The notes beneath the pieces were generated by a model. It did not search any database, was not told the origin of the DNA, and saw only the letters and a program-made list of their open reading frames with translations. Below are positions 4,179-35,335 of a stretch of 35,335 nucleotides of DNA, in pieces. How positions within the stretch are numbered: position 1 is the first letter of the stretch; the number at the start of each line of letters is the position of its first letter. Both the position numbers and the translations under genes were made by a program. Source of the DNA: Candidatus Bilamarchaeaceae archaeon (GTDB taxonomy: Archaea > Micrarchaeota > Micrarchaeia > Anstonellales > Bilamarchaeaceae); the NCBI GenBank assembly GCA_035289085.1, contig DATDYG010000019.1, positions 1-35,335 of the forward strand, in the 5' to 3' direction.

Positions 4179-4184
4179 ATTCTC

Positions 4185-9117: not shown

Positions 9118-9732
9118 TTAGCCCTGGGAGTGTGTCACCATTTTTAGCAGCTCAAGATTTTTCATGCCATTCTTGAAGTGCCGTTCGTCAATCTTAATCG
9201 TTGTTTTCTTTGAAAGGTGATACGCAAATATGCTTACAAACCAGCCCAAATATCTTCTAAGCGAATAGCGGTATAACTCATTAAATTTAACAAGATCAGT
9301 ATTTGTTAGATAATGCTCCCAAAGATCCAAAATATCATGCAATGAAATTGGCAAAATGCCTTTTTCTGAGTAATAAAGAAGATCAACAAGGCATTTCTCA
9401 AGTTTTGGACGAGATTCTTCTACTTCTCTTCTAGTTTTGCCTTTCCTTGCCACAATAACTATGCTGGCCTTTTTATCCACTAATCTTATTCTGAGTATTG
9501 GTTTTTTTATCCCTGCATAAATTTCATGATCTGGATAATTTTTAACCATCAATTCAACCAATGAATCTATTGCAACTCGATCGCACTCAATGAAAATTAT
9601 GTTCTTTCTCCAATTATGAAGCATAGGCATAAAAGGGGTTAAATCCCAGATAACAATACTTAACGCTGGCATCTCCCTATGAATCACTTTTGTTATTTTT
9701 CCAGTCTCTTTTCCGAATATAATACTTGTCAT
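9118..9732 (-). CDS. hypothetical protein, candidate cognate partner (antitoxin position) of the 8084-9031 nucleotidyltransferase
   Basis: 204-aa ORF immediately upstream on the same strand, which is the canonical antitoxin-first order. I saw no obvious N-terminal winged-HTH and recognised no family. Confidence 0.45.
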   Translation of the reverse strand: MTSIIFGKETGKITKVIHREMPALSIVIWDLTPFMPMLHNWRKNIIFIECDRVAIDSLVELMVKNYPDHEIYAGIKKPILRIRLVDKKASIVIVARKGKTRREVEESRPKLEKCLVDLLYYSEKGILPISLHDILDLWEHYLTNTDLVKFNELYRYSLRRYLGWFVSIFAYHLSKKTTIKIDERHFKNGMKNLELLKMVTHSQG

Positions 9733-9740
9733 ATAATTAG

Positions 9741-9777
9741 TTTATATGACAAGATATAAAAAGCTATCTTTTGTCAT
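9741..9777. promoter_or_regulatory. palindromic TATA/operator region in the divergent TA promoter
   Basis: TTTATAT(9741-9747)/ATATAAA(9754-9760) is a perfect 7-bp inverted repeat. ATGACAAGATA(9746-9756)/TATCTTTTGTCAT(9765-9777) is an imperfect palindrome. The ATATAAA arm lies 22-28 nt upstream of the minus-strand start at 9732. Confidence 0.5.
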
Positions 9778-9808
9778 CTATGATTTACTAAATTAGCAAA
9801 TCGATAAG

Positions 9809-9819
9809 ATTAAAAATAG
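9809..9819 (+). promoter_or_regulatory. TATA box for the 9839-10513 nucleotidyltransferase gene
   Basis: ATTAAAAATAG lies 20-30 nt upstream of the ATG at 9839. Confidence 0.5.
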
Positions 9820-9838
9820 TTTAATCTTTATTAGTTGT

Positions 9839-10513
9839 ATGGCTATATTTGAAAAATGGGATTGGATAAAAAGAAACTGGCTCTACGTGCTGGAGGAAGC
9901 TGATAAATTAGGCCTTGTTTTCGCAGGTGGCACAGCACTTAACCTAGCTATATTTAGGGAATATCGGGCATCCGAAGATATCGATTTATATAATCCTGAT
10001 TCTAAGGGCGTTGATAATCCAAAAGGTATTGCAGAAAGTGAACTGGCAGCCGAATTAGCAGAGCAGCTTGCAAAAAAAGGATTTGAGATAGTGAAAATCG
10101 AGGGAAGGGTGATCTATACAGGGCCCAATATAAAAATTGAAATTTTTAATGATGGCACGTTATTCAATAAAATAGAAAAAAAGACGATAAAAGAAGTAAA
10201 AATAGCGGTTTTTGATTTGCCTACTTATGCAGAAATGAAAATGTCAGCCCTTCTTTGCAGGACGAATTATGATTCACGCGATCTTATAGATGTTTTTATC
10301 CTCCATACTGGGGGCAAGGTCAAACTTTCTTTCCCAAGAATGGAATGCGAAATTATCGAAAATCAGTTTCACCAGCGCCTTAAAGAAATAAAAGAAACCA
10401 AAAAAGGCGATCTTTACATTTTCCAGACAAAGGAGCAGGTTGATTCTCTTCCATTCAACGAATTTGAAAAATTTAAGTGGTGGTTATCTGACTGGCTATC
10501 AGGATTTCATTAG
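9839..10513 (+). CDS. AbiEii-like nucleotidyltransferase (second copy)
   Basis: VFAGGTALNLAIFREYRASEDIDLY is the GGTAL...R.S.DIDL core motif. A later SRDLIDVF block is also typical of the family. Confidence 0.7.
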   Translation: MAIFEKWDWIKRNWLYVLEEADKLGLVFAGGTALNLAIFREYRASEDIDLYNPDSKGVDNPKGIAESELAAELAEQLAKKGFEIVKIEGRVIYTGPNIKIEIFNDGTLFNKIEKKTIKEVKIAVFDLPTYAEMKMSALLCRTNYDSRDLIDVFILHTGGKVKLSFPRMECEIIENQFHQRLKEIKETKKGDLYIFQTKEQVDSLPFNEFEKFKWWLSDWLSGFH

Positions 10514-13852: not shown

Positions 13853-14671
13853 TTATTGCGCAGCAACCGCTTCTGCTGTCGTATCCGTCTGCGGCTCCGT
13901 TTTTTGTTCGATGATCTTCCTTAATCTCAGGAGCGCTTCGGTCTTGAGCTGGCATGCCCTGGATACTGTTACCCCCAGCATTTCGCCGATTCTTTGCAAC
14001 TCTACTTCTTCAAAATGATATAAAATAATAATCATCCTATGTCTCGGGCCAAGCTGGTTGATCGCATCTCTTAATGTTAACATGTCCTCCCTGCTGATCA
14101 CATGACCTAGGGCATCCACCTGATTTGCAACTGTTCCTCTGGTTAAGAAGGCAAGGTCCTCCTCTGCTAATGCATCCAGAGGGCGGCTTCGTGCTCTCCG
14201 TGCCAAGACCAGCACTTCCCGTAATTTTTCTATACCCATCTGCGCTCTTTCTGCCAGTTCCTCATCCGAAGGCTCGCGGCACAGCTCCTTCCTGAGTCTC
14301 TCATCTATTCTCTGTACCCTCTTTAATTGGATTCTTTTATCCCTGGAGAGTGGATCCACCATTCTCAGTTCATCCAGCATTGCCCACTTCACTCTTTTTT
14401 CGGTGAATTGGCGCGGGGTGCCTTGTTCCGGATCATGATCCTGGCGCATTCTTTGTACGAATGCCATCCTTCCGGCCTGGGCCAGATCCCTATAATCCAC
14501 CGCATACCTTGTTCTGGCAGCGAGGCGGCGGGCCATTGACTGTATCCATCCGTCATTTTCTCTTAATAATACGTCCATTCTGTCCACAAGGGGCTTTATG
14601 CTGGCCAGTTTTGCCTGTAATCCTGCTCCATGCGCGGGCAGCATGTCCGCCTTTAATGCCACTATCGCCAT
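13853..14671 (-). CDS. sigma-70 family protein, FliA/sigma-28-like (paralog 1)
   Basis: Region 2-like DLAQAGRMAFVQRMRQDHDPEQG..FTEKRVKWAMLDELRMVDPLSRDKR. Region 3-like PSDEELAERAQMGIEKLREVL. Region 4 HTH LGPRHRMIIILYHFEEVELQRIGEMLGVTVSRACQLKTEALLRLRKI. Confidence 0.8.
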   Translation of the reverse strand: MAIVALKADMLPAHGAGLQAKLASIKPLVDRMDVLLRENDGWIQSMARRLAARTRYAVDYRDLAQAGRMAFVQRMRQDHDPEQGTPRQFTEKRVKWAMLDELRMVDPLSRDKRIQLKRVQRIDERLRKELCREPSDEELAERAQMGIEKLREVLVLARRARSRPLDALAEEDLAFLTRGTVANQVDALGHVISREDMLTLRDAINQLGPRHRMIIILYHFEEVELQRIGEMLGVTVSRACQLKTEALLRLRKIIEQKTEPQTDTTAEAVAAQ

Positions 14672-14688
14672 TATTATATATTAGTAAC

Positions 14689-14701
14689 AACTATTTAAAA
14701 A
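14689..14701 (-). promoter_or_regulatory. TATA box (TTTTTAAATAGTT on the minus strand) for sigma paralog 1
   Basis: The plus-strand 13-mer AACTATTTAAAAA begins 18 nt beyond the start codon at 14671. An identical 13-mer sits at the same spacing upstream of paralog 3 (17172-17184). Confidence 0.6.
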
Positions 14702-14726
14702 TGTATTGGATAATGGCTTTTAATGG

Positions 14727-16469
14727 CTATTGCGCAGCCGTTGCACTGTCTGCTATCGCCGCAACTTTCTTCGCATCCGCAGCATTTCCTGCTTCCAGTT
14801 CTTTGTGCAGCCGGTTTCCCAGGCGCGCAAAACCAGCCAGATACAAGTTGATAAGGCTGCCCCTTGGTATTCCCCCTCTTTCCTCGATTAATATACCGTT
14901 TGCGATCAGATCTGCCAGTTCGCCTTCTCTCAACTGCAGGGCATGTTCTGTGTCTTCCCTATCTGCTATCCACCCGTCCAGGGGCGGCAGGTTCGCCATG
15001 CTTGTCGCTCCCAAAAAGGAAATGCGTCTTTTGTTATCCATTAAAACCGGAAAATCCGTTTCCCTGTCCAGCCGGCCTGTATACTGTCCCAGACTTCTTC
15101 TTCCTATTCCTCTGCTGTCATAAATCTCATTATATATTCTTCCGGCATCCAATTTTTCCCGCATCATCACTGCCAGATGCTCCAGAACCAGATCCCTGTC
15201 CTGCTCTGCATAACCTGAAACAATCCTATCCATCCACCGCTGTGCAAACCGATCCAAAAACCCATCCCAAGGATCCTGCTCTGCTACTTGGGTCCTTTCC
15301 CCTACTGGTTCTGCCAGCTCCATCCCCTCCTCTTCGGTCGGCGCCGTCCGTCGCTCATCCCTGCCTGCTTCAGGTGCAGCAACTTCGTACTGCTCTCCAA
15401 GTACTGCCTCCAATACCTCCTGTTCCGCTGCATCTTCCGATCCTACTTCCCTTTCCAGTTCTACAAGCCTCTTCAGCTCCTCTCCCAGTCCCTCAAGTCC
15501 GTCCAGAAACCCATCCAAGTCCGTTCCATCTTCCTCGTTTCTCCCTGTCAATCCCTGCTGTTCCATCGGTGCTGGCGGTCCTTCTTTCTCCTCTACCACA
15601 GCATCTGCTTCCAATTCTGCGGAAGCTGCCTGTAATCGTCCATTGCTTCCCCTGGCTATGTTCTTTGCCGGTACCTTGTCGGATTTTAACATCTCTTTTA
15701 ACTGTTCTCTGGCTTCCCCGAGAAGCTGGCATATCCTGGATTCCGTGACCCCCAATTCTTCGCCTATTTGTCCTTGCGTGCGTTCTTCAAAATAGTAACC
15801 CTCTATTACCCGCCGATGCCTTGGGGAGAGCTCTTGCATAAACACATGTATCTGCATCTCATCCATTCTTCCTACCAAGAGGGTCAGTGAATCCAGCTGC
15901 TCGGCCGGTACATTCGCCAGCAAATCCAATTGATCGGAAGGTGCTCCTGTTCTGTTACGGGGGGTGAAGTAGGCGACTAAGGCGGCCTTCTGCATTATTC
16001 GGACCCTACGTGCCTTCTCCACTGACCAGTCCATTCCTTCAGCCAGTTCCTCGTCCGTGGCATCCCGGCCATGGGATTGGGAGTATCCCCGGTCCACCTT
16101 CCTTGCTCCCCTAACATCCCTTCTCATGTTCCGGCTAAGAGGATCCATATCTCTCAGTTCATCTATTATCGCCCCCCGGACTCTCTCCGCTGCGTATGCC
16201 TCAAAGGCACCTATTTGTTCCGGATCACAGTGGTGGTAAGCCCGGATCAGTCCCTCCATTCCTGCCTGTTCCAGATCCTCCTTCACTCGCACAGCACGCG
16301 GAACTTTTCTGGCATATTGTTCGGCCATCTTTCTTACACGGGGCCCTAATCTTTCCACTACGCTATCCAGTCCTCCCAATCCCTTGATGACCCTGAATTG
16401 CCTTGTTCTTCCGGCCATTTTAGGTTTATTCTGCAACTGCTTAAAGGTCATACCATCTACCATCTGCAA
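14727..16469 (-). CDS. sigma-70 family protein, FliA-like, with a C-terminal extension of about 320 aa (paralog 2)
   Basis: DLEQAGMEGLIRAYHHCDPEQIGAFEAYAAERVRGAIIDELRDMDPLSRNMRRDVR and LSPRHRRVIEGYYFEERTQGQIGEELGVTESRICQLLGEAREQLK are present. The track start at 16469 is a TTG. In-frame ATGs at 16463 and 16451 fit the upstream TATA better, so the start is uncertain by 2-6 codons. Confidence 0.75.
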   Translation of the reverse strand: MQMVDGMTFKQLQNKPKMAGRTRQFRVIKGLGGLDSVVERLGPRVRKMAEQYARKVPRAVRVKEDLEQAGMEGLIRAYHHCDPEQIGAFEAYAAERVRGAIIDELRDMDPLSRNMRRDVRGARKVDRGYSQSHGRDATDEELAEGMDWSVEKARRVRIMQKAALVAYFTPRNRTGAPSDQLDLLANVPAEQLDSLTLLVGRMDEMQIHVFMQELSPRHRRVIEGYYFEERTQGQIGEELGVTESRICQLLGEAREQLKEMLKSDKVPAKNIARGSNGRLQAASAELEADAVVEEKEGPPAPMEQQGLTGRNEEDGTDLDGFLDGLEGLGEELKRLVELEREVGSEDAAEQEVLEAVLGEQYEVAAPEAGRDERRTAPTEEEGMELAEPVGERTQVAEQDPWDGFLDRFAQRWMDRIVSGYAEQDRDLVLEHLAVMMREKLDAGRIYNEIYDSRGIGRRSLGQYTGRLDRETDFPVLMDNKRRISFLGATSMANLPPLDGWIADREDTEHALQLREGELADLIANGILIEERGGIPRGSLINLYLAGFARLGNRLHKELEAGNAADAKKVAAIADSATAAQ

Positions 16470-16481
16470 ATATTTTTATTC
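16469..16481 (-). promoter_or_regulatory. TATA-like element for sigma paralog 2
   Basis: The minus-strand sequence reads GAATAAAAATATT. Its centre lies about 25 nt upstream of the in-frame ATG at 16451. Confidence 0.45.
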
Positions 16482-16503
16482 CCTTGTCCCAGATTCCCAA
16501 AGC

Positions 16504-17154
16504 CTATTCTGTTTTTCCGCCTGGCACTGCCACCAGCCAGGGCCTGCCATTGCCATAGCCGCAGGCGGGTGCCTCCATTGCCGCTTTCAATTCCCCGAGC
16601 GCTTCTTTGATAAGCTTGGATACCATAGGTTGGCGGATGCCCAGTATTTCGGCTATTTCCTTTTGGTCTACGCCGTCAAAAAAGTATAATTTTATTGCCA
16701 GCTGTTTCCTCCTGCCCAGCCGGTGAATTCCTCCCATGAGCCTTCCTATCTGCTGGCTGCGTGCCGTTGCTTCAAAGGGATCCGCATCACGGGACACGGG
16801 TTCGCTGTCCGAGCGCAGGGGAGCAGGAATATCACGGTACCGCAAGTCTCTCAAGTAATCCATCATCCGGCACCGCACTTTCCATCTCGCAAATGCTTCA
16901 AACGTGCCTCTTTCCGGGTCATATCTATGTCCTTCCGCAAGCAGCGCCATTCTTCCTGCCTGCACCAGATCATCCGCATCGGCTCCATGTTCCCAGGCCA
17001 TCCTGCGGGCCATGGTGCGGATCAATGAGTCGTGCTCTCTCAACATGGTTGCATCAGTATGCAGTCCTTCTGCCATCCCGTCCCTGAATCCTCTTCGGGA
17101 TGCAGGGACAGCGCCGGGTTTTGAGGCGTTCTGTAATCGGGTAACTAGTGCCAT
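16504..17154 (-). CDS. sigma-70 family protein, FliA/ECF-sized (paralog 3)
   Basis: DLVQAGRMALLAEGHRYDPERGTFEAFARWKVRCRMMDYLRDL is region 2-like. LGRRKQLAIKLYFFDGVDQKEIAEILGIRQPMVSKLIKEALGELK is a region 4 HTH. Confidence 0.75.
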   Translation of the reverse strand: MALVTRLQNASKPGAVPASRRGFRDGMAEGLHTDATMLREHDSLIRTMARRMAWEHGADADDLVQAGRMALLAEGHRYDPERGTFEAFARWKVRCRMMDYLRDLRYRDIPAPLRSDSEPVSRDADPFEATARSQQIGRLMGGIHRLGRRKQLAIKLYFFDGVDQKEIAEILGIRQPMVSKLIKEALGELKAAMEAPACGYGNGRPWLVAVPGGKTE

Positions 17155-17171
17155 GTGTGTATATATATTAT

Positions 17172-17184
17172 AACTATTTAAAAA
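17172..17184 (-). promoter_or_regulatory. TATA box for sigma paralog 3
   Basis: AACTATTTAAAAA is identical to 14689-14701 and also begins 18 nt beyond the start codon (17154). It lies in the 37-nt gap after the Mrp stop. Confidence 0.6.
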
Positions 17185-17191
17185 CCTATGG

Positions 17192-17977
17192 TTACTCTGT
17201 TATCGCTTTCACTGCATTCACAAAAACATCCCGGAATTCCGTTGTATGCAGGGGTTTTCTTTCCTGCAGATACCGCTGGATTTTTTTATCCAGGGGAAGA
17301 GAGCCGAAAAATGGGAGGTTGAATTCTTTTGCCAGTTTTTTCCCTCCACCCGAACCAAACATCTCCCCGCTCATGTTTTCTATGATTCCATATACATTCA
17401 GCTTTAGCTTTTGTGCAAATTTTATGCTTCTTCTTGCATCCATTATGCCAAGCTCATTGCTGGTAGTTACAATAACGAAGCCGTGGGGCCTGAGCATCTG
17501 GGCTATAGTGAGTGCGGCATCGCTCGATCCGGGCGGCATGTCCAAAACCAGATAATCAATATCCCATTCTACTTTATAGACGAATTCTGTAATTGCAGAC
17601 GAAATCATCGGGCCCCTCCAGAGCATGGCACTCTTCCCGATAATGGCTCCCATGGAAACCACCTGCAGTTTACCCGACACCAGCGGCTGTATCTTCCCTT
17701 CCTTGGCCGTAAGCCGCTCCTCCAGTCCCAATGCCAGCGGAACATTCGGACAGTCGATATCCGCGTCCAGCAATCCCGTCTTTCCTTTTTCGGCGAGTGC
17801 CCAAGCTAAATTGATCGCTATGGTTGTTTTTCCCACCCCTCCCTTTCCGCTCCAAACTGCGATGCGTCTTTTTATCTGATTTAATTTATTTTCTAGCTGT
17901 TTCTGCTGCTGTTCTAATGGAGATTCGCTCCGTTCGCTGAATTTTTTCTTCCGCTCTTCAAATTCCTTAAGTTCCAT
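17192..17977 (-). CDS. mrp: Mrp/NBP35-family P-loop ATPase lacking the CXXC motif
   Basis: Deviant Walker A WSGKGGVGKTTIAINLA, plus LLDADIDCPNVP, VLDMPPGSSD and IIENMS motifs. The CxxC normally found after ENMS is absent (ENMSGEMFGSGGG). Confidence 0.85.
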   Translation of the reverse strand: MELKEFEERKKKFSERSESPLEQQQKQLENKLNQIKRRIAVWSGKGGVGKTTIAINLAWALAEKGKTGLLDADIDCPNVPLALGLEERLTAKEGKIQPLVSGKLQVVSMGAIIGKSAMLWRGPMISSAITEFVYKVEWDIDYLVLDMPPGSSDAALTIAQMLRPHGFVIVTTSNELGIMDARRSIKFAQKLKLNVYGIIENMSGEMFGSGGGKKLAKEFNLPFFGSLPLDKKIQRYLQERKPLHTTEFRDVFVNAVKAITE

Positions 17978-17987
17978 AAAACCAGGT

Positions 17988-18287
17988 TTACACCATTCCT
18001 AAAGCCAGCTTGGCCTTCTCGCTCATCCTGTCCGGGCTCCAGGGAGGGTCCCAGACGATCTCTATCTTTACCCGATCCACTCCGGGCAGTTCTTTTACCT
18101 TGGCCTCAATCTCGCTCAGCAACTGATCCAACAGCGGACAGGCGGGCGTCGTTAACGTCATTTTAATCTCCACACTCCCTCTATTTTCATGAATGTCATA
18201 CACCAGTCCCAAATTCACAATATCCATGGCAATTTCTGGATCGTATACGGTCGTCAATTTATCCAGTATCTCTTGTCGGGTTGCCAT
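17988..18287 (-). CDS. DUF59/MIP18-family (SufT/PaaD-like) Fe-S assembly protein
   Basis: 99 aa. ILDKLTTVYDPEIAMDIVNLGLVYDI and LTTPACPL are the typical DUF59 signatures. Confidence 0.8.
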   Translation of the reverse strand: MATRQEILDKLTTVYDPEIAMDIVNLGLVYDIHENRGSVEIKMTLTTPACPLLDQLLSEIEAKVKELPGVDRVKIEIVWDPPWSPDRMSEKAKLALGMV

Positions 18288-18289
18288 GG

Positions 18290-19276
18290 TTATCTCCCTG
18301 CTACCGGGTTTATCTCTAGTTGGGATTCCTGCTCTGCGGTATGGTGAATGGTTTCCCCGGCATAATATATCTTGTAACCGCTCTTGGCGGTATGCAGCGT
18401 TCTTTCTCCCATCTCCACTGCCGTTACTCCCCTGGCTACGATAACCTCTGCGCGGGTGATGGCCACCGCTCCTTCGGCGGTTTCTTTGGTTAGCATCTCC
18501 GCTATTTTGGGCAAGGCCTTAACCGCTCCTTTCGCCGCCAGTTGCAATGCCTTGGCAGCGGTTATCGTAATCGCCACCTCAATGGCCGCGTTTTTCACAA
18601 ACTCTCCGGAAACCGATAAAAATCCGCTAAGCTGTTCCAGTTCCGCATGGTTCTGCCGGAGCAGGGAAGAGAGGTTTCCGTGTGCATCCCCCAATCCCTC
18701 CATCGCATACGCCAGCCTGTCCTGCGCGGTTTGAAGTTGTTGGCGGTCCCCGGAAAACAACGCGCGGGTCATCTGATTATAGGATTCATAGAAGCTTTCC
18801 AGTTTCATGTCAAAACGCCTGGCTTCCTGGGCGGCCTGGGCCCATACCCTGGTTTGCTTGCCGCTTAAATATTTCCCTGCTTCTCCCAATACCTCTTTCG
18901 TATCCTTTAATGTCACTATCTCTTTCCCACTGGTCCATTCATACAATTGTACAAACGGATGGCCCACAGCCGAGAGCGCTCCTGCTGCCCCGGATCCCAA
19001 TCCAGCGGCAACCTCCTTTGCCCGGCTGGGTTTGTTTGCTGCGAGTTCGGCCTGCATCTGCTGCAGCGCATCGCCACTTGAACTGGCATGTTCGGCTATT
19101 TTTAGCAGCTGCTGTATGGCAGGCCGGTACTGCTGGTACGTGTCCAATGCGGCTTGCTGCTGCTCGGTCAATGGCCGTTGCTCCATCCAGGCGGCGGCCC
19201 GCTGCTCCACATCCCGCAGCTGCTGCACGTTTTGCTGGAATGCCTCCTGCTCCTTGGTCATTTGTTTGAATGCCAT
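18290..19276 (-). CDS. hypothetical Gln/Ala-rich helical protein
   Basis: 328-aa ORF. AGGTGA SD overlaps the upstream stop 4-9 nt before its ATG, and its stop abuts the DUF59 start, which suggests translational coupling. No family was recognised. Confidence 0.55.
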   Translation of the reverse strand: MAFKQMTKEQEAFQQNVQQLRDVEQRAAAWMEQRPLTEQQQAALDTYQQYRPAIQQLLKIAEHASSSGDALQQMQAELAANKPSRAKEVAAGLGSGAAGALSAVGHPFVQLYEWTSGKEIVTLKDTKEVLGEAGKYLSGKQTRVWAQAAQEARRFDMKLESFYESYNQMTRALFSGDRQQLQTAQDRLAYAMEGLGDAHGNLSSLLRQNHAELEQLSGFLSVSGEFVKNAAIEVAITITAAKALQLAAKGAVKALPKIAEMLTKETAEGAVAITRAEVIVARGVTAVEMGERTLHTAKSGYKIYYAGETIHHTAEQESQLEINPVAGR

Positions 19277-19280
19277 ACAT

Positions 19281-20036
19281 TCACCTGCGGCTGGGCACGC
19301 TGTCCCGCACGGAATTCTCCCTGTGCAATTCCAATATCCGCTTCAGTGCCGGATCGTCTGCAACGGCGGCCTGCCACTCCGAGGCTACGCGGGGGTTTAT
19401 GCGTACGGCCCATTGAATAAACAGTCCTTTTTCCGGCAGTGCCACTTCCCCATCTTCTACTTCTGCATGCAACCGTTCCACTGCCTTGGCCGGGTCAATC
19501 AGTTTGTTGTGAAACATCATATACGTTGCAGTCGTTGCAATGCCATGCAGCAGCAAATACTCCTCTGATGAAAACGGCATCCGCATCCCTGCTCCGGCCC
19601 GAACCAGCTGCACCGCTGTTTCAAATCCCTGCTCCCCAAACCGCGCCAGCCCGTATGCCAGCGTTTTCATGTATCGAAACCGCCGGAGATTGGTTTTTCG
19701 GAGCTGGCTGAAATCCTCCGGACTCCTACCCGCCAACAAAACCTGTTTCCGGATCTCTTCGAGCGCTTTTCCTTTGTATCTATCTACAAAGCTCTGCATA
19801 ATGTCAAACCGTGTCTGCTCGCTTAAATCTTCGGCCAGGATGGCAAAAACGATGCTGCGCGCCTTTTCAAACGGCAATTTCTCCATGGCTTCGGCTGCCC
19901 GTTGCTTGGCATTGGATTGAGTTGCAACTATCGCCATATCATCTCCTCCTTTGCATGCAATGTGTTCTACTGCCGGAACCGTTGCCAATACCAGCGATAT
20001 TGCCGTTCTCCGGATTATCTGAAATCGTTGTACCAT
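19281..20036 (-). CDS. hypothetical protein, possible signal or lipoprotein-like N-terminus
   Basis: 251-aa ORF, the first gene of a same-strand run. Its N-terminus reads RRTAISLVLATVPAVEHIAC. No family was recognised. Confidence 0.55.
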   Translation of the reverse strand: MVQRFQIIRRTAISLVLATVPAVEHIACKGGDDMAIVATQSNAKQRAAEAMEKLPFEKARSIVFAILAEDLSEQTRFDIMQSFVDRYKGKALEEIRKQVLLAGRSPEDFSQLRKTNLRRFRYMKTLAYGLARFGEQGFETAVQLVRAGAGMRMPFSSEEYLLLHGIATTATYMMFHNKLIDPAKAVERLHAEVEDGEVALPEKGLFIQWAVRINPRVASEWQAAVADDPALKRILELHRENSVRDSVPSRR

Positions 20037-28312: not shown

Positions 28313-28501
28313 TTTTGACTTTAACCAGTCCTTATTTATCGAAGAATAAACCGATTTCAGCAGTTTTGCCTGCTTTTTCGACCAAACCCTATTGGGCTGG
28401 CTTTTTATGATACCGGCTATCCGGTCTATAAACCGTAACGAGGCCCGTATATCCTTTTTTCGTTCCCGTTTCATTTTTCCCAGGTCAAGCAAATGAACCA
28501 C
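28307..28501 (-). CDS. small basic hypothetical protein (64 aa), possible partner of the upstream nucleotidyltransferase-fold gene
   Basis: The ORF overlaps the 3' end of 28485-29108 by 17 nt, and an alternative Met at 28474 avoids that overlap. It overlaps the convergent trm56 stop by 6 nt. No family was recognised. Confidence 0.3.
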   Translation of the reverse strand: MVHLLDLGKMKRERKKDIRASLRFIDRIAGIIKSQPNRVWSKKQAKLLKSVYSSINKDWLKSKS

Positions 28502-29108
28502 CGAGGTTATGCAATTTACTGGAAACTTTTAATTTCTTTGCAAAATGAACAATCTTCCTTTGGTCCAAATGCTCCTTAAATATGTCAAAAAGATATCGTG
28601 CATCCTCCCAATCCTTTTTGGATCCCAGGTACAGTTTATACGCTACCTGAAGTTCCAAAGGAGAAATGTTTATTTTGTGCTTTTTATTGATCGTTACCTC
28701 CACGGGATGGCTAAGCGATAAGAACCCAAGCGCATCTCTGGGTTTTTTTACCTCCATGTTGGGCGAAATCTCATTTTTTCTGGCCACGCGGAACGGATCA
28801 TTATGCTGAAAAAGAAGTTTAAGCGTATCCCAGGATCCCGCGTTAATAATCCAATGATCCTTCTGCAGTTCTTTGTATAATGCAAACAGTTTTTTTTCGT
28901 CTATTTCCTCTATAAAAATATCCACATCCTCTGTAATCCTGGGACGACCGAAAAGCAGGACAACATATCCGGACATTAAAACATATCTTATTCCTACTTT
29001 ACCCAGGATGGCGGTAAAACCCAGGACAAACTCATCCAGTACGTTCAGTTCCTTGTCCAGGCGAATCTTCCCTTCCCCATACCCGTATTCCATGCCCCTA
29101 TTAAGCAA
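28485..29108 (-). CDS. nucleotidyltransferase-fold protein (minimal NTase-like)
   Basis: YVLMSGYVVLLFGRPRITEDVDIFI fits the G[SG]-x(n)-[DE]xD polymerase-beta-type NTase core. The gene is AT-rich like the AbiE island. Confidence 0.6.
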   Translation of the reverse strand: MLNRGMEYGYGEGKIRLDKELNVLDEFVLGFTAILGKVGIRYVLMSGYVVLLFGRPRITEDVDIFIEEIDEKKLFALYKELQKDHWIINAGSWDTLKLLFQHNDPFRVARKNEISPNMEVKKPRDALGFLSLSHPVEVTINKKHKINISPLELQVAYKLYLGSKKDWEDARYLFDIFKEHLDQRKIVHFAKKLKVSSKLHNLGGSFA

Positions 29109-29138: not shown

Positions 29139-30191
29139 TCAGTCTTTTTTTGCATCTTTTCTTGAAAAATCCCCAAAAATTTCCAGTCCTGGGGCGGTTC
29201 CTATGCTTGGCAGTGCCTCCAGCGGCATGTCGATAAATAGTTCCCCATCCCCGAATCCATACTCCTCCTCAAAGGCCCTCCGGGCTTCCAGCGCTGCCGT
29301 GAATTCCCCGAATGTTTCCAGTCCTTCCACCGGGCTTACGGAAGGCAGCGGCCGTCTTCTTTGCCGCATAAGCTGCTCTATCTCTGCCGTTATCTGTTTC
29401 GCCAGTCCCTGTCTTTCCTCTCCGCTTAATTCACGGCTCGTTATGCTTAGCCTCCCATCTGCCATCAGCTTAACCGGACTGTAGTAATCCCGAAGACTGG
29501 TAGCTCTGCGATACCTGTCCGGTGCTACAATGGCTAAAAAATTCCTGCCATTAAGGAAATCGGATAACGTCCCCTCATTGTACATCCTAAGGAATTCCTC
29601 TGCCGTATGCACCTCTCCATCAAATTGGAAGGCCCTATTCGTGGTGACGTGCAGGTGGGGGGTTTTCCCTGCCTGTGTATTCCCGCTGATCGCAACGATC
29701 GGTAGGGGCTTACCGGGTTCTGCCCTTATCTCCCTTCCGATGTGCCTTTCGTTCAGCAAGCCCAATGTTGCCCCGGAAAGATGGGCAAAGAGCATGAAAT
29801 ACGGCTTTTCCGGATCCGGCACAAAAAACACCACCCCATTGCCGATGCTTTGGCCGGCATGGCTGTCCTTTTTGCAAACCCCTATCAGAACGACCGTTGG
29901 GGCCGGCAGAAGAACCGGTGTGCCTATGCGCACCACCAGGTCCACACCTGCATGCCGTTTGCTTCCGTGGTTTCTCGATGCGCCGAAATACCGCGTTCCT
30001 GTTCTTTCGATAACCTGGCGAATGGCATGTTTAAACGGATCGGTTCTATGTCTTTCGGGTGCAGAGAAAGTTGGATGAGCGGGTTCCGCATGCACCGGCC
30101 CTTCGCCAAGTACCAGTCCGGATAGTGCAACCGCTGCTGCGCGAACGGTGCCCATGGCTGGCGTGAATGCTCGTGTATGTAGTCTTCGCAT
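29139..30191 (-). CDS. secreted M23 (LytM/lysostaphin-type) metallopeptidase with a C-terminal extension carrying two GLE[TI]FG[ED]F motifs
   Basis: Signal-peptide-like MGTVRAAAVALSGLVLGEGPVHA. M23 zinc ligand motifs are HAGVD (HxxxD, residues 80-84), FAHLSG and TPHLHV (HxH, residues 179-181). The motif copies lie at 29301-29324 and 29166-29189. Confidence 0.75.
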   Translation of the reverse strand: MRRLHTRAFTPAMGTVRAAAVALSGLVLGEGPVHAEPAHPTFSAPERHRTDPFKHAIRQVIERTGTRYFGASRNHGSKRHAGVDLVVRIGTPVLLPAPTVVLIGVCKKDSHAGQSIGNGVVFFVPDPEKPYFMLFAHLSGATLGLLNERHIGREIRAEPGKPLPIVAISGNTQAGKTPHLHVTTNRAFQFDGEVHTAEEFLRMYNEGTLSDFLNGRNFLAIVAPDRYRRATSLRDYYSPVKLMADGRLSITSRELSGEERQGLAKQITAEIEQLMRQRRRPLPSVSPVEGLETFGEFTAALEARRAFEEEYGFGDGELFIDMPLEALPSIGTAPGLEIFGDFSRKDAKKD

Positions 30192-30210
30192 TATCTATCC
30201 CACATATCAC

Positions 30211-30220
30211 TATAAATAAA
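30211..30220 (-). promoter_or_regulatory. TATA box for the M23 peptidase gene
   Basis: The minus-strand sequence TTTATTTATA lies 20-29 nt upstream of the start at 30191. A second TTTAAATAAG lies just upstream at about 30224-30233. Confidence 0.55.
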
Positions 30221-30271
30221 AACTTATTTAAAGATGCGGTATTCTATACCCCTGCTCAAACCCGCCAAAAA

Positions 30272-32449
30272 TTATGCTCCTGCTTCCCCCGTCTTTCGGG
30301 GTTTGATCCCGGCCAGCCGGTCCTTTCTTTTAACCGGAACAGCGGATTCCGGGCCCCATTCGGTATAGGGCTTTGCCTTGCGCGGGTTTCTTAAGGTTCC
30401 TTCGGTGATTTTAAGGTCGTGGTCAGCAAGGTATTCGGCATTTTGCAGGACAGTATCAATCGGCGTACGTGTTCCCTCACCTATTCTGAGGCGAAGGATA
30501 GGGATAGCTACGCCGGGACTATACAAAGCATTCATAATTTCCTTGGCCACTTCTCCTAACCTATATCCTGCAGCGGATTCCGCAACTATCGTCATTGTCC
30601 TGACAAACTTGGCCAGGTCTTCGTCTGTTCGAAGTATCCCCCGATCAAAACCATCCCTGAAAAGGCTTGCCAAAACCTCTTCGGGCTGCTGCAATCCTCC
30701 CTGGGCTGTTGCCGCTATCAACCTAAACACCAACGCCTGGCGGACTGGGCTGTTTCTATAATCGCTTCTATGCTTGACCTTATGTTCAGCAGCCCCGTAA
30801 AGCGGTCTTTCAATATCAAAAACCTCGCCTGATGTTACCCGCCCAAAAAGGTTTATCCCTGGTCCACGTTGCAACTTATCTCCTAACGCTCCTATGGCTG
30901 CCGCATACTCAAGCATAGAATAAGAATCATGTAACAGTCCCGAGCTTATAGCCTTGGAAAGCATCCTTTCCACCAATATGAATTCACCCGGATCTAAATT
31001 GTCAGAGAGCCAACTAACGAAACCGATAGCAAGCGTGTTAAATACTTCCACCCCTGCTCTGGATGCACCTGCAATTACCGGGGTGATAAGGAAATCATCC
31101 ACAGCCTTTCTCTCCGGCGATTTAGTCCGTCCTGCCAAGTATCCGTATGCAACCGCTTCCTGGTTCAAGATTCTTGCGCTGAGGGCACCTTCCTGTGCCT
31201 TACTTGTAGTTTCTGCAAAACTTTTCAATACCCTTTTCGTTAACTCGACCGCAAAGTCCGGGCTGCGGGGCGGCTTAAGCTGGAACGCCTCCAGAAAAGA
31301 GTAATGGAAGGTGGATAAGATAAGAATCTTCTCCAAGTATGTTGTTTCTATCCCCATATTTTGCAGGTTTCGTAGATTCCTGTCTACTTTTTCTACCAAT
31401 CTCTCTCCACCTGGAACTGAAAGCCTTTCTGCCTCTGTTGATGGCCTCTGCCATATATCCTTTAACGCCTGCAGCATTTCCACGTAAATCTTGCTTTGCA
31501 TCTTTTTTGATTTTGCTGCAGCATAAAAGGCATCTATAAACGCCTGCGGGTACTGTTCCTCTATCTGACGTAATTTATCCAGAACGGTTAACAAAAGCAG
31601 GCGTTCCCGCTCTGTCAACAGGTTGTTCTTCGGATCCAGCAGCTCCTTTAGCTTTTCTTCCGTGCTTTTGGACAGGCGCATATCCCTGCCTTTCAAAACA
31701 CTGGGAATGAGTTCTGCTGTAGTCGTCATATAGGCCGCTCTTTCCGCCGGCGTCGTGTCCAGCCATTTGGCCTTTAAGTATAATACCGCATCCTCCAGCT
31801 TTCCTGTTTTACTATGGGTAGCCAGGATCTCTGCAAAAATGGCCTTCAGCAGCTTGGTATCCGGCTCGGGCCTTGCCACCCCTCCAACCTCGTCCTTTGA
31901 TGCGGCTTTTATAAGCTCTGCAAATGCCGTTCGCGCATCCGGCGAGGCATCGCGTCCGTCCAGGGCTTTCTTTACCTCTTCCAGCTGCCTGTTCATCTCG
32001 GCTGGCGTTCCGCCGGCCTGGACGATCTTCTGGTATTCTATTATCGTCTTCATGAATTTTACTACTGCCTCTTCACCATGCTCTGTCATCAGCATGAAGG
32101 TGCCAAACAGGAACAGGTCCTTCTGCTTCGGGGTTAGTGTTATCAAAAAACTCCTGAGTGCTGCACTGGCTTCCTCCGAAGCCCCGCTGTGCTTTAAAAC
32201 GTCAAAAATAATGTCCTCCACCGGCTTCCTTAAATCGACAATACTGTGCCGCACAAGTACAACATACATCCTGTCCAGTTCCTTCATTATCTTCGGCCAG
32301 GACAAATCGCCTTTGGCGATGGTCGGTTCCATGGCATCTTCTATTTGTGTAGGGGTAGCGTGTGTTGGCATACTACTATAATTCGGAGCAGTATTTATTA
32401 ATCTTTGCGGTTGCTTTGCATGGGATAAAGAGGATATGAGTGGTGCCAT
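30272..32449 (-). CDS. large orphan protein (725 aa), mostly helical, basic C-terminal tail; N-terminus uncertain
   Basis: Long ORF with coding-strand composition matching its neighbours. No strong SD or TATA precedes the ATG at 32449. The 81 nt upstream are open in frame and encode a signal-peptide-like RSRHPSALLALTLG. The C-terminus RNPRKAKP..VKRKDRLAGIKPRK is basic. Confidence 0.6.
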   Translation of the reverse strand: MAPLISSLSHAKQPQRLINTAPNYSSMPTHATPTQIEDAMEPTIAKGDLSWPKIMKELDRMYVVLVRHSIVDLRKPVEDIIFDVLKHSGASEEASAALRSFLITLTPKQKDLFLFGTFMLMTEHGEEAVVKFMKTIIEYQKIVQAGGTPAEMNRQLEEVKKALDGRDASPDARTAFAELIKAASKDEVGGVARPEPDTKLLKAIFAEILATHSKTGKLEDAVLYLKAKWLDTTPAERAAYMTTTAELIPSVLKGRDMRLSKSTEEKLKELLDPKNNLLTERERLLLLTVLDKLRQIEEQYPQAFIDAFYAAAKSKKMQSKIYVEMLQALKDIWQRPSTEAERLSVPGGERLVEKVDRNLRNLQNMGIETTYLEKILILSTFHYSFLEAFQLKPPRSPDFAVELTKRVLKSFAETTSKAQEGALSARILNQEAVAYGYLAGRTKSPERKAVDDFLITPVIAGASRAGVEVFNTLAIGFVSWLSDNLDPGEFILVERMLSKAISSGLLHDSYSMLEYAAAIGALGDKLQRGPGINLFGRVTSGEVFDIERPLYGAAEHKVKHRSDYRNSPVRQALVFRLIAATAQGGLQQPEEVLASLFRDGFDRGILRTDEDLAKFVRTMTIVAESAAGYRLGEVAKEIMNALYSPGVAIPILRLRIGEGTRTPIDTVLQNAEYLADHDLKITEGTLRNPRKAKPYTEWGPESAVPVKRKDRLAGIKPRKTGEAGA

Positions 32450-32530
32450 TCCTAACGTCAGAGCCAGCAGTGCGGATGGATGTCTGGACCTGCTGTCCTT
32501 GGGTTTACCGGTAACTATTTTTCCCCATCT

Positions 32531-32677
32531 TTAAATATTTGCCACAAGACTGCTTTTCGACCTGGACTGGATGAACTCCCCGAACGTCTCGAGCCCTGCC
32601 GCTTTGATTTTCGCCAAAAAAGGATTCTTTCTCTTTTTCGATACGGTTTTTGCCTTCTTCTTGGATGGTTTTGCCAT
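32531..32677 (-). CDS. unannotated small ORF (48 aa): basic N-terminus plus GLETFGEF motif
   Basis: My translation is MAKPSKKKAKTVSKKRKNPFLAKIKAAGLETFGEFIQSRSKSSLVANI. AGGTGAGG SD lies 3 nt upstream of the ATG and overlaps the upstream TGA. The ORF carries the same 8-aa motif as two neighbouring proteins and is too short for the supplied ORF track. Confidence 0.5.
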   Translation of the reverse strand: MAKPSKKKAKTVSKKRKNPFLAKIKAAGLETFGEFIQSRSKSSLVANI

Positions 32678-32682
32678 GGACC

Positions 32683-33834
32683 TCACCTTTTTTTCCTTTT
32701 CGCCGGTTTCTCTTCCCCCCCTTCTCTCCTTCTTCTTGAAAATTCACCCAGCGTTTCTACGCCCGGAACGGTTGGCGGAAGCTCGACTCTGGGCAGTTCG
32801 GCTTCTCCCGCTTCCCCTGCCGCTGCCGCCTCTGCCGGCTTCCCTGCATCCTCCAGATCCCTCAAAAACCCTGCTTTCTTCTCGTTTTCCCAGCTGCCTC
32901 TCTGTATGATGTTGTAGATCGCCAGCACGGTCGCCATCTTCTCATCCAATACGCCGTCCATGGTAAAGCCGGTCACGGTCCTGAATCCTTCCCTTTCTTC
33001 CATCACCGGCTTTCCCTCCTCGAGCCTGATCATGCCGGTTTCCTGCAACGCATTCAGAAAGGCGCGCGCCTTGTCGGAGTCCTTCTGCGCATAGTAACTC
33101 AGGAATACCTCCAACTGCGTTACCATATGGTTGAAACTGTCGTCGTATCTGCCGTTCGGTCGTACGCCCATCCCTCCGCCGGCTGTTTTCACAAACTGCT
33201 TGAACTCTTCATCTCCCTGCAACAACTTCAGGTAGAGCCGTTGGACCGTTTCCACCCGTCCCTGCTCCAGTTTCCTCCGTGCATTTTGCTGGGTATATTC
33301 TCCCCCGATATCCTGCCGCTGGCCTTCGGGGCCCACCAGACCCATGGTGATCAGCGCTTCCGCCGGTTTGGGCCCGCCCTGGAAAAACAAATGCGCCATC
33401 TGTTCCGGATTCTCCATCCGTGCGCCCGGCACGTACAGCCGTTCCAGCCGTGCAGTGAGCGTTTTCCGTTGTTTTGCCAGTTCCCTCCATACAGCAACCG
33501 CACCTCTTTGATCAAACCTTGCTTTTAACCGATCATCAAAAATCGCATTAAACTGCGTCGTTAATCGCGGCCCCAGCGCCTCCTTCATCCCATCCCTGAA
33601 CTTTTCATCGCGCAGGTTGTCCACTGTAAATAACCGTATAAATGACCTTCGGTCTCCTCTTCCGGTTTCAATGAATCTCCGCAGTTCTTCGCCTGCCTTC
33701 CTGCCTTCCTCTTCCAGCGATTGTGCTTGGGCCTGTGCTGCCATCATCATATGTTCCCCGAATGGTTTTTTAAAGCTAAATGCGCTCACCGCAACTACGC
33801 CGCTTAGCGCTAAGCGCAAAACCCTTCTCCCCAT
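32683..33834 (-). CDS. secreted orphan protein (383 aa) ending in GVETLGEF plus an Arg/Lys tail
   Basis: Signal-peptide-like MGRRVLRLALSGVVAVSAFSF. The C-terminus reads PGVETLGEFSRRRREGGEEKPAKRKKR, with the motif at 32740-32763. A TATA-like AATTTATTC/TTTAAAG lies in the 38-nt upstream gap. Confidence 0.6.
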   Translation of the reverse strand: MGRRVLRLALSGVVAVSAFSFKKPFGEHMMMAAQAQAQSLEEEGRKAGEELRRFIETGRGDRRSFIRLFTVDNLRDEKFRDGMKEALGPRLTTQFNAIFDDRLKARFDQRGAVAVWRELAKQRKTLTARLERLYVPGARMENPEQMAHLFFQGGPKPAEALITMGLVGPEGQRQDIGGEYTQQNARRKLEQGRVETVQRLYLKLLQGDEEFKQFVKTAGGGMGVRPNGRYDDSFNHMVTQLEVFLSYYAQKDSDKARAFLNALQETGMIRLEEGKPVMEEREGFRTVTGFTMDGVLDEKMATVLAIYNIIQRGSWENEKKAGFLRDLEDAGKPAEAAAAGEAGEAELPRVELPPTVPGVETLGEFSRRRREGGEEKPAKRKKR

Positions 33835-33872
33835 ATATTCATTATGACTTTAAATGAATAAATTCTTTTACA

Positions 33873-35324
33873 TCAAAGATTCGGTATCCGTCCTCTCCTG
33901 CGCCCTCTTCCATGTCTCGTTCGCCGTGGTTTGGCTTCTGCTGGTTTCTTCTCCCGTGTTTTTTCTGCTGCTTCTTCTGTTATCACTTCCTCCACCTTCT
34001 TGGGCGCTTTCAACAGCCCTCGTCCTGCGTAAATTGCCTGCAGGGAATCCGACAGCATCAATCCGTCCAATCGCTGATCTTCTTTCGCAAGCTGGTCAAG
34101 CAGTTGCATCTCCTTTCCTTCGGCTACGTTTTCCTTGAACCAGTCCTGCGCCATCCTGCCTGCAGCCTGATAGATGGAATGGATGAGCCAGGGGATTGTT
34201 TTCCCGGTAATCACCGGTGAAGGCGGCCGTGCCCTTCCCAGCGTTGCTTCCCGGAGTTCCTGCAGACTTTTAAATCTGAATCGCAGGCGCGGAACCGTCT
34301 CTGGCCCTATCTCCGTGGCGAGATGCTGCGTGCCGTAGCCGACCGTTCGCTTTAAGTAATAGAAGAATACCGGCGACAGGAGCAGCTGCATGTCCGGGTT
34401 GGCCCGGGCCATCGCATACGGAATACGGAAAGGTAGCTTGGCTCCCCACCGTCCTAATCGTACTACATCCGCCCCCAATCCTATTGCCGTTTCAAAAACC
34501 AGTGCGGTTTGTGCAAGCTCCGCACTTATCTGCGCGTGGCGCATAGCGGTCTGCTGGCCTTCTGCCGTTGTAATATCTGCTTTGGCCAGCTGCTGGGTAA
34601 GTCCTCTTTGCTCTTTCCATAACTCAATGAATCGTGCGACGGGTCGTGTTCCGTATAACCGCTCCAGCAGTCCGCGCGTCTTCTGGGCCTGTGCCATGGC
34701 TTTGGGGCCCAAACGGCCTGCCGCGCCAGCGGCCATCTGCGCCAGCCATCCGGCTTTTTGAACTACCCATGGGCCGGCTGCCCCATGCTCGGCTGCGGCC
34801 GCCCTGCTCATTGCCGTCTGGATGGCATCCCGGTCTGCCTGCAAAAAGGCGATCCTGGCTTCTACTTCTGCGGAGGGTTTGCCTGCATCCTGCAATCCCT
34901 TTAACTCTTTTTGCGCATCCCCTAGCCCCTCCAATACCGTCTTCATATTTGCTTCCAATGCTTCCCTTCCGGTTGCCTTGGCGCCCTCTTTCTCCGCGGC
35001 TTCGGCCGCTTCCTGCGCAAGGCGCTGTAAATGTTTTGGCGACATCTCGGCCATTACCTGCAGCTGGTATGCCTCCAGCACCTGCAATCGCGTTGCATCG
35101 TCCATTTTCGGGATATCATCGGTGAGCTGCTGCAGCATTTTTCTAAAGCGTTGCGGGGTGCTAAGGTATTTCCATATCTCTTCCGCGGCCGCCAGCTGTG
35201 CCCGGCGTAACCGGCTGCCTTCCCGGGCGTCGGTTGCCAACCGGTTTTTTATCTGTTTCCCGCTTTCCCACAATGCGGTCCGCGCATTTTTCAGCTCTTC
35301 CCCTTTCATTCCCCGCTTGCCCAT
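33873..35324 (-). CDS. orphan helical protein (at least 483 aa) with an Arg-rich C-terminal tail; may extend beyond the window
   Basis: Long ORF with no in-frame stop between the Met at 35324 and the window edge. The C-terminus reads KPRRTRHGRGRRRGRIPNL. No family was recognised. Confidence 0.6.
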   Translation of the reverse strand: MGKRGMKGEELKNARTALWESGKQIKNRLATDAREGSRLRRAQLAAAEEIWKYLSTPQRFRKMLQQLTDDIPKMDDATRLQVLEAYQLQVMAEMSPKHLQRLAQEAAEAAEKEGAKATGREALEANMKTVLEGLGDAQKELKGLQDAGKPSAEVEARIAFLQADRDAIQTAMSRAAAAEHGAAGPWVVQKAGWLAQMAAGAAGRLGPKAMAQAQKTRGLLERLYGTRPVARFIELWKEQRGLTQQLAKADITTAEGQQTAMRHAQISAELAQTALVFETAIGLGADVVRLGRWGAKLPFRIPYAMARANPDMQLLLSPVFFYYLKRTVGYGTQHLATEIGPETVPRLRFRFKSLQELREATLGRARPPSPVITGKTIPWLIHSIYQAAGRMAQDWFKENVAEGKEMQLLDQLAKEDQRLDGLMLSDSLQAIYAGRGLLKAPKKVEEVITEEAAEKTREKKPAEAKPRRTRHGRGRRRGRIPNL

Positions 35325-35335
35325 CTCGATGCTCA

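Follow-up and report, generated by a model that had tools for sequence, protein, structure and literature searches.

The present study deals with a cluster of five minus-strand genes, designated A to E, at the end of the 35-kb contig DATDYG010000019.1 of Candidatus Bilamarchaeaceae archaeon; the whole stretch of 35,335 nucleotides that was analysed is referred to below as the window. Bilamarchaeaceae is a family of the order Anstonellales in the Micrarchaeota, a lineage of DPANN archaea (PMC8561730). The main subjects of the text are a short peptide, called here the tag, that is carried by three products of the cluster (B, C and, twice on a C-terminal extension, E), and the recurrence of this kind of peptide, followed by a polybasic tail, beside relatives of gene D in another archaeal lineage.

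Table 1 Positions of the features discussed; coordinates are those of the window unless another contig is named
Feature	Coordinates	Strand	Description
Cluster A–E	29139-35335	-	Five genes, from the list of open reading frames
Gene A	33873..35335 (open reading frame 33873-35324+)	-	C-terminal 483 codons of ~778-aa helical, Ala-rich orphan
Gene B	32683..33834	-	383-aa helical orphan
Tag copy, gene B	32740..32763	-	(TVP)GVETLGEF, then basic tail
Gene C	32531..32677 (or to 32686)	-	48-aa (51-aa) miniprotein, gene call on L002 and L003
Tag copy, gene C	32573..32596	-	(KAA)GLETFGEF
Gene D	30272..32449	-	725 aa (699 aa from ATG at 32371, preferred by gene callers), all-helical
D, N-terminal domain	31700-32272	-	Residues ~60-250
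D, conserved core	30350-31663	-	Residues ~263-700
Gene E	29139..30191	-	350-aa predicted secreted, divergent M23 (lysostaphin-type) metallopeptidase
E, putative signal peptide	30087-30191	-	Residues ~1-35, crude rule
E, catalytic core	29640-29957	-	Residues 79-184
Tag copy 1, gene E	29301..29324	-	(SPVE)GLETFGEF after RQRRRPLPSV
Tag copy 2, gene E	29166..29189	-	(TAP)GLEIFGDF, then SRKDAKKD and stop codon
Poly-Lys family, ~135-175 aa	L013 6645-7097; L015 8315-8845 and 12873-13277; L021 7976-8455; L022 2767-3216	-	Between secF and tag-bearing gene
N-terminal stretches of partner and D-family proteins	L013 7154-7339 and 8355-8576		Lost by late starts of gene calls
Giant secreted orphan	L025 8238-12989	+	1583 aa
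Giant secreted orphan	L017 3429-8657	-	1742 aa
Adjacent ftsZ	L024 4796-5959	-	Ends ...QLAPAEETLQYL
Low-GC orphan	28485-29108	-	202-207 aa, GC 0.41
Sigma-70-type genes	13853-17154	-	272, 580 and 216 aa
ATPase and two orphans	17192-20036	-	Mrp/NUBPL type, then 328 aa and 251 aa
Small paralogous pair	3123-3629 and 3666-4178	-	Signal peptides, 42% identity
Third small secreted orphan	6531-7082	-	Near the pair
Low-GC island	8084-10513		GC 0.35-0.39, two AbiEii-type toxin genes
Strongest purine bias	3123-4553, 6531-7082, 13853-20036, 29139-35335	-	Purine-rich third positions, lower third-position GC

Genes of the cluster and the tag

All five open reading frames of the preliminary description, which had been made from the letters of the DNA alone, were found (Table 1), gene A being cut by the window end, which removes ~295 N-terminal residues of its product. 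On overlapping contigs the full-length product of A has 778 aa from the first ATG and 774–795 aa as called (L002:1143-3479 and L024), and a GGTGA ribosome-binding site and a TATA-like box lie upstream of it in L002. The characterization of the cluster as a group of orphans was borne out, as no match was obtained for A, B, C and D in Pfam, PHROGs, NCBIfam and PADLOC, or for A, B and D in sequence and profile searches of the PDB; PADLOC gave no defence-system match for any of the five products. A comparison of A, B, D and the orphans located at 18–20 kb of the window for paralogy revealed nothing in common beyond the tag.

The motif G[LV]E[TI][FL]G[ED]F, which the preliminary description had noticed in three products, was met four times when the whole window was translated in six frames, and all four occurrences are the in-frame copies of B, C and E. 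The copies follow Pro-rich linkers (LPSVSPVE-, LPSIGTAP-, LPPTVP-) and adjoin basic stretches. No hydrophobic segment follows the motif at any copy, and it runs straight into charged residues; an archaeosortase or sortase signal (PGF-CTERM, LPXTG) was rejected as the identity of the tag owing to this lack of a subsequent transmembrane helix. The GLETFGEF peptides of C and E are identical, yet five of their eight codons differ, all synonymously, which argues against recent duplication of the DNA and indicates that the tag peptide itself is under selection. As for viral sequences, GLETFGEF-type DNA patterns were met in seven stretches of IMG/VR against ~3.5 expected by chance, and the one suggestive case, LPMQGLETFGEF in a phage protein of 1200–1404 aa, was discarded, having nothing else in common with the cluster.

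The carriers of the tag differ in their architecture. The helical protein B has a signal-peptide-like N-terminus (residues ~1–21) and a Pro/Ala-rich linker, after which come the tag PGVETLGEF and the basic tail SRRRREGGEEKPAKRKKR; it gave only a self-match in a word-indexed search of 5.8 billion proteins, and no match in the PDB, phage genomes or family libraries. Miniprotein C, with its Lys-rich N-terminus (nine K/R in 20 residues) followed by the tag AGLETFGEF, is essentially a free-standing tag. Gene C is probably real, because a GGTGAGG ribosome-binding site is located 5–6 nt 5′ of its ATG and because of the five synonymous differences between its GLETFGEF and the copy in E. Protein A carries no copy of the motif, and it ends with the Arg-rich tail KPRRTRHGRGRRRGRIPNL (nine K/R in the last 20 residues).

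A Lys/Arg-rich terminus had been ascribed to every product of the cluster. This proved correct for A, B, C and D, with 7–10 K/R in the terminal 20 residues against 0–6 (8 in one protein) elsewhere in the window, whereas the last 20 residues of E hold four K/R and four D/E. Export signals were sought with a home-made rule for hydrophobicity and cleavage sites (basic N-region, hydrophobic core, and small-x-small cleavage site or lipobox). This crude rule flagged B and E, in agreement with the earlier statement that at least two N-termini resemble signal peptides; A, C and D were negative, and none of the cytoplasmic housekeeping proteins was flagged.

The M23 assignment of E stands on its catalytic residues rather than on profile scores. 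HxxxD (H80-A-G-V-D84), a further His (H137, in FAHLS) and HxH (H179-L-H181) are all present; H80, D84, H137, H179 and H181 are invariant in the alignment of E with its sole two homologues, P0003 and P0004, and the HxxxD of E aligns with those of TagE (5j1l) and of 2hsi. At the same time, the score of E against the Pfam M23 profile (PF01551) was 18.2 bits (E 0.0028), that is, below the gathering cut-off of 28.7, the NCBIfam MepM profile gave E 0.53, and a profile of the three sequences matched four PDB entries, all of them M23 enzymes, weakly (E 0.016–0.8). The identical protein at NCBI bears the name 'M23 family metallopeptidase [Candidatus Bilamarchaeaceae archaeon]'. The two homologues, the only ones among 5.8 billion proteins, are 45–49% identical to E over residues ~50–253, and P0004 possesses a signal peptide similar to that of E, ending AHA. 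They end where the last 90 residues of E start, so the C-terminal extension of E (residues 262–350), with its two tag copies, is absent from them. Since both homologues lack the tagged tail and are located in unrelated gene contexts, the tag on E appears to be an add-on acquired in this cluster. Judged by its sequence, E would be a highly divergent M23 enzyme, secreted and apparently active, with a tail found only here. The enzyme itself is an additional member of a kind already known in archaea, because there are reports of extracellular M23 enzymes and of further murein hydrolases from Micrarchaeota, from other DPANN archaea and from haloarchaea (PMC8561730, PMC8204110, PMC12352652).

The D family and its tag-bearing neighbours in other archaea

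Protein D ends with a conserved ITxGTLRNPxKAKP and a basic tail. In the word-indexed search of 5.8 billion proteins it matched only itself, but the exhaustive phmmer search of 1.84 billion representatives revealed relatives in five other 50%-identity clusters, P0006–P0010 (29–30% identity, E 1e-40 to 7e-16), and three further D-family loci were obtained by a metagenome scan (tblastn E 5e-50 to 8e-36). The D family, as considered here, comprises protein D (D725), P0006–P0010 and the proteins of loci L021 and L022. All members are encoded on contigs of uncultivated organisms, with archaeal markers where checked, and the relatives of D are surrounded by housekeeping genes; two scans of GTDB representative genomes gave no relative of D, and a scan of IMG/VR with the family alignment gave none of the family. 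The alignment of six sequences has 31 invariant columns in the helical core, and the N-terminal domain (Table 1) is present only in D725, P0006, P0007 and the L021 protein. No Pfam family recurred among the weak matches of the members. AlphaFold2 models of D were all-helical and of low confidence, with a predicted local distance difference test score (pLDDT) of 41 for the single sequence and 54 for the six-sequence alignment; Foldseek with the D model against the PDB yielded nothing at E ≤ 0.001, with TM-scores of ~0.1. The D family, its partner proteins and the tag are undescribed.

The other lineage in which the tag is met is represented by four loci, L013, L015, L021 and L022. Locus L021 can be assigned to an archaeon because of its archaeal-type glycyl-tRNA synthetase, SecD/SecF and geranylgeranyl-reductase-family protein, and the remaining three have gene order and related proteins in common with it. 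In all four loci, secD-secF is followed by a divergent ~150-aa protein with a poly-Lys tail, a helical protein of 326–492 aa and the D-family gene, the gene of the helical protein lying immediately upstream of the D-family gene on the same strand. These helical partners end with GELETFEEF (-KKRM...KKKKKK), IEGLPSYDKYV (...KKKK), PVEGLPSYKGFV / TPVEGLPSYKGFV (...KKKKKK) and VGFKTFDQW (...KKKKK); PVEGLPSYKGF is among the tag-like endings of this lineage. In B and E the same kind of ending, a motif joined to a polybasic tail, is seen (compare PVEGLETFGEF in E / SPVEGLETFGEF), and an upstream tag-bearing gene with a polybasic tail is thus common to the four loci and the window, where the gene is B, with C between B and D. 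Across the two lineages the consensus of the tag is approximately [VI]-E-G-L-[EP]-[TS]-[FY]-x-x-[FY], after which comes a Lys/Arg-rich tail. The tails are Arg/Lys-rich in the window (~50% GC) but consist of poly-Lys in the relatives, so that conservation concerns the charge. In the other lineage a signal anchor or a lipobox is found at the N-terminus of both the partner and the D-family proteins; examples are LLVVSC of P0007 and PALGC of the L022 protein. The export signals of L013 appear only with upstream ATGs missed by the gene caller (Table 1). Searches of the PDB with the partner family gave no match.

The presence of the tag follows the domain composition of the D-family proteins. A tag-bearing neighbour accompanies the members with the N-terminal domain that are named above; among the members without this domain, P0008 and P0009 have no tagged neighbour, and in L013 the gene of P0010 comes directly after that of P0006. 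In a third lineage (L019, L020, L025), D is shorter, the N-terminal domain and a tagged neighbour are both missing, and D is adjoined by a secreted giant of 1583 aa. As regards co-conservation, on which the earlier idea of a cluster depended, the pairing of a tagged helical protein with a D-family protein is repeated in one further divergent lineage of archaea, whereas the M23 homologues occur in unrelated contexts, no homologues of B were found, and none of A were found in family libraries, the PDB, phage genomes and local comparisons, the only sets searched.

Several additional features of these loci were noted. The N-termini of both exported proteins have the pattern (K/R)FGR, a hydrophobic stretch and then xFINN in three of the four loci of the tag-bearing relatives, and the DNA just 5′ of both start codons is conserved and reads, in frame, ...HLFICM(A/T)TQ. 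The ~135–175-aa proteins with a poly-Lys C-terminal tail form an undescribed family, always located between secF and the tag-bearing gene in this lineage, with no Pfam or NCBIfam match. Orphans of 1583 and 1742 aa, both giant and secreted, are encoded next to or close to D-family genes, and the 1583-aa one has a Gly-rich, beta-looking end region with a terminal aromatic residue.

Surroundings of the cluster

The cluster is located in the core chromosome of the archaeon, between ftsZ/aglB on one side and trm56 on the other. According to overlapping contigs, the genes upstream of A are a divergent ftsZ and then an AglB-type oligosaccharyltransferase gene with the WWDYG motif; downstream of the cluster are a low-GC 202-aa orphan, trm56, NMD3, DUF2070, RFC and XPD. 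The cluster was also found on the metagenome contigs L001–L003 and on the 29-kb contig L024, with 99.8–100% identity, i.e., in one population; the environmental contigs come from JGI 3300025323 and ENA ERZ27254752, ERZ4903055 and ERZ4903072. Within this population the cluster shows five non-synonymous and two synonymous changes, numbers too small for a test; at such identity the ratio of non-synonymous to synonymous rates is uninformative. TATA-like boxes are present in the intergenic regions before B, D and E. No tRNA was found in the window, and no Rfam family reached its gathering score within it.

The base composition of the cluster had been said to match that of the core genome. This is true of bulk GC but not of codon third positions: the third-position GC of the cluster genes is 0.51–0.61 against 0.66–0.71 in the neighbouring XPD, RFC, DUF2070 and NMD3, and the third-position purine fraction is 0.58–0.69 against 0.44–0.49 in the same genes. 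Purine-rich third positions (0.58–0.69) with lower third-position GC mark one class of minus-strand genes in the window, which takes in the cluster, the sigma block at 13.8–20 kb and several small orphans, and adjacent housekeeping genes of either strand are without the bias; expression level, amino-acid bias and a common foreign origin are candidate causes.

Other observations concern individual genes of the surroundings (Table 1). The cluster-adjacent FtsZ lacks the near-invariant archaeal GID motif. The low-GC orphan directly downstream of gene E is kept on all overlapping contigs and has no family match. The block of three sigma-70-type genes in this archaeal contig has Pfam regions 2, 3 and 4, and its 580-aa product carries an acidic C-terminal extension of ~320 residues; sigma-70 genes have already been reported in DPANN archaea, their role being called unclear (PMC8204110). 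Adjoining the sigma genes are an ATPase gene and two orphans with no family match beyond coiled-coil noise, the 251-aa one having a signal peptide and a lipobox-like EHIAC. The small paralogous pair, which has signal peptides, and the secreted orphan of similar kind near it are without family match, and the low-GC island contains two genes for AbiEii-type nucleotidyltransferase toxins.

Possible function of the cluster and its relation to known systems

The best-supported interpretation, to which we give a confidence somewhat short of even, is that the cluster is a lineage-specific cell-surface module, at least partly exported. Its conserved core would be a D-family protein together with an exported helical partner whose C-terminus bears a short linear motif and a Lys/Arg-rich tail, and the tag would dock proteins including the M23 peptidase. 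A docking or sorting role is inferred for the tag because it always adjoins D, co-occurs with the N-terminal domain of D and is an add-on on E. In the mechanism proposed, the tag, located in a disordered tail, would bring the tagged proteins to one common partner, for which the N-terminal domain of the D-family protein is the best candidate. The polybasic tails could hold the assembly on an anionic surface, either the membrane or envelope of the cell itself or the envelope of a partner or prey, where E would cut peptide cross-links, e.g., of bacterial peptidoglycan, at the docking site, and miniprotein C might compete for this site or regulate it. Proteins A and D would then also have to be placed at the surface, and the whole could serve interaction with a partner cell. 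The further generalization, that the ~11-residue motif and its polybasic tail might represent a hitherto unrecognised 'tag-and-dock' signal of DPANN-type archaea, read by the N-terminal domain of D and assembling exported proteins at the surface or at a contact site, is speculative and on balance doubtful.

Several points weigh against the docking module. The main internal difficulty is that A, C and D appear to have no detectable signal peptide, and a cytoplasmic D, as receptor, could not meet the secreted B and E. The extracellular or surface location suggested in the preliminary description is accordingly only partly upheld, agreeing with the signal-peptide-like N-termini of B and E and with the anchors or lipoboxes of D homologues and tag neighbours in the other lineage, and not with the N-termini of A, C and D. 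The terminus of the peptidase E is itself not net basic. The link between tag and D appears to rest on gene context, the AlphaFold2 models of D being poor, and the four supporting loci belong to one broader lineage, so the association is based on two independent lineages; the third lineage has D without any tag. Searches for homology of A and B to the tag-bearing partner family with BLAST, hmmsearch and hhalign gave nothing significant (hhalign E 0.02–0.04), the score observed for residues 46–257 of A being reached by 2 of 120 shuffles, which is a hint only. In addition, the contigs with the whole cluster are all of one population, to which the synteny comparison among close relatives is thus confined. 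Finally, because TATA-like boxes precede B, D and E, the five genes need not form one operon, and the boxes suggest separate promoters.

The same data allow other explanations. The tag with its basic tail could be a general C-terminal signal for sorting, retention or processing, read by machinery encoded elsewhere, like LPXTG, PGF-CTERM or the C-terminal domain (CTD) of type IX secretion; the genes would then all be cargo, with D as an unrelated cargo or a chaperone. We consider this somewhat unlikely. The location of the tag, which follows Pro-rich linkers close to or at the C-terminus and in many cases comes after LP[SP]x, its presence on proteins with N-terminal export signals, and the proximity of the tagged gene of the other lineage to secDF and the ~150-aa poly-Lys-tail protein are consistent with such a signal, but the hydrophobic transmembrane segment that known archaeosortase and sortase signals need does not follow the motif, one copy in E is internal, C is tagged without having a signal peptide, and the tag gene is located directly upstream of the D-family gene in both tag-bearing lineages. 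Unlikely, too, is the absence of any functional module. In this case E would be a secreted M23 hydrolase acting by itself, in antibacterial antagonism or in the scavenging of bacterial walls, its neighbours would be fast-evolving, lineage-specific orphans, and the motif would be a local duplication of tails. The occurrence of the M23 homologues alone in other contexts, the documented cases of archaeal peptidoglycan hydrolases acting alone (PMC12352652), the separate promoter-like boxes before B, D and E, and the excess of non-synonymous over synonymous changes, which would fit relaxed constraint if the numbers were not too small for a test, speak for it. Against it stand the synonymous-only divergence of identical tag copies, which points to selection on the peptide, the restriction of the motif to four copies within 6 kb of the 35 kb, and the persistence of a tag-like motif with a basic tail beside D-family genes at ~26–30% protein identity.

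Two further explanations have a lower probability. According to one of them, which has only a small chance of being correct, the genes form a cytoplasmic nucleic-acid-binding or division-linked module, the basic tails binding DNA or RNA and the tag mimicking a partner-binding peptide such as the C-terminal tail of FtsZ. The cluster is indeed divergent from ftsZ, whose product ends with APAEETLQYL, loosely like PGVETLGEF; A, C and D lack signal peptides, and the tails resemble nucleic-acid-binding or nuclear-localization-signal-like stretches. However, the crude rule assigns signal peptides to B and E, the latter is a peptidase of the lysostaphin type, and the relatives are exported lipoproteins or anchored proteins beside secDF rather than ftsZ. 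Moreover, the consensus of the archaeal FtsZ C-terminal tail is centred on a near-invariant GID motif (PMC8178401) that is absent from the tag; mimicry of the FtsZ tail as a SepF-binding peptide was rejected on this ground and on account of the exported carriers. The least probable explanation, to which we give very little credence, is the one offered as an alternative in the preliminary description, a domesticated viral structural or lysis module of tape-measure-like helical proteins and an M23 lysin. Among PHROG families, the M23 core of E weakly matched phage metallo-endopeptidases (E 2e-4) and, at E 0.06, a tape-measure protein, and the best rows of a BFVD Foldseek search with the low-confidence D model were tape-measure proteins (E 0.08, TM ~0.1), scores that are at noise level for a model with pLDDT 54. 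On the other hand, A–D had no PHROG match, the D family has no relatives in IMG/VR, and A, B and D gave no tblastn match in 50,697 phage genomes. The capsid, portal or terminase genes that were to be looked for beyond the window edge did not appear: nothing like them, no integrase-like gene and no tRNA were among the genes called ~6 kb upstream and 29 kb downstream, the flanks being ftsZ, aglB, trm56, NMD3, DUF2070 and RFC, and the D relatives, too, are found among housekeeping genes.

DPANN archaea depend on contact with other cells, yet hardly any component of their surface machinery is known, and for most protein families specific to their lineages no function is predicted (PMC8204110). The locus offers a short tag, apparently under selection, that recurs in two deeply divergent lineages, a rare protein family beside it, and an M23 enzyme apparently recruited by gaining the tag. 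Should the tag serve for docking or sorting, genome scans for it would list surface or effector proteins, and the M23 enzyme would indicate that the partner or prey of this Micrarchaeota lineage has a wall and is probably a bacterium. Otherwise, the locus would be one more orphan cluster beside a divergent secreted peptidase.

Among known systems, the archaeal extracellular M23 enzymes of the lysostaphin/zoocin type are the nearest to E, namely, the M23B enzyme of Micrarchaeota LFWA-II (PMC8561730) and 'Woldo' of halophiles (PMC12352652). HxxxD, the further His, HxH, the putative signal peptide and the archaeal origin are in common, and the likely target, the peptide cross-link of a foreign cell wall, would also be alike. 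In contrast to them, E scores far below the Pfam cut-off, has only two homologues and, instead of a recognised cell-wall-binding domain (PG_binding_1, LysM, SH3b), carries the ~90-residue tail with two copies of the motif. Long helical proteins together with an M23 peptidase are also characteristic of phage tail tape-measure proteins with M23 domains, but here the M23 enzyme is a separate, presumably secreted protein, the neighbours are not those of a phage, and there is no sequence or credible structural likeness.

With docking systems (cohesin-dockerin, SLH) and sorting signals (LPXTG/sortase, PGF-CTERM/archaeosortase, type IX CTD), the cluster has in common several exported proteins, one of them an enzyme, with the same C-terminal element encoded at one locus, which suggests a common destination. 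The element here is, however, only ~8–11 residues with a polybasic tail, disordered, with neither a folded domain nor a subsequent transmembrane helix, and the likeness is one of functional analogy only. The giants of Woesearchaeota and Pacearchaeota with a murein-transglycosylase domain (fam00969) are likewise DPANN-specific, secreted, largely uncharacterised and endowed with a bacterial cell-wall hydrolase activity, and they have been proposed to mediate attachment to other cells (PMC8204110). There the enzyme, which belongs to another class of hydrolases, is a domain of a single giant, whereas in the cluster it is the product of a separate small M23 gene tied to its neighbours only by the tag.

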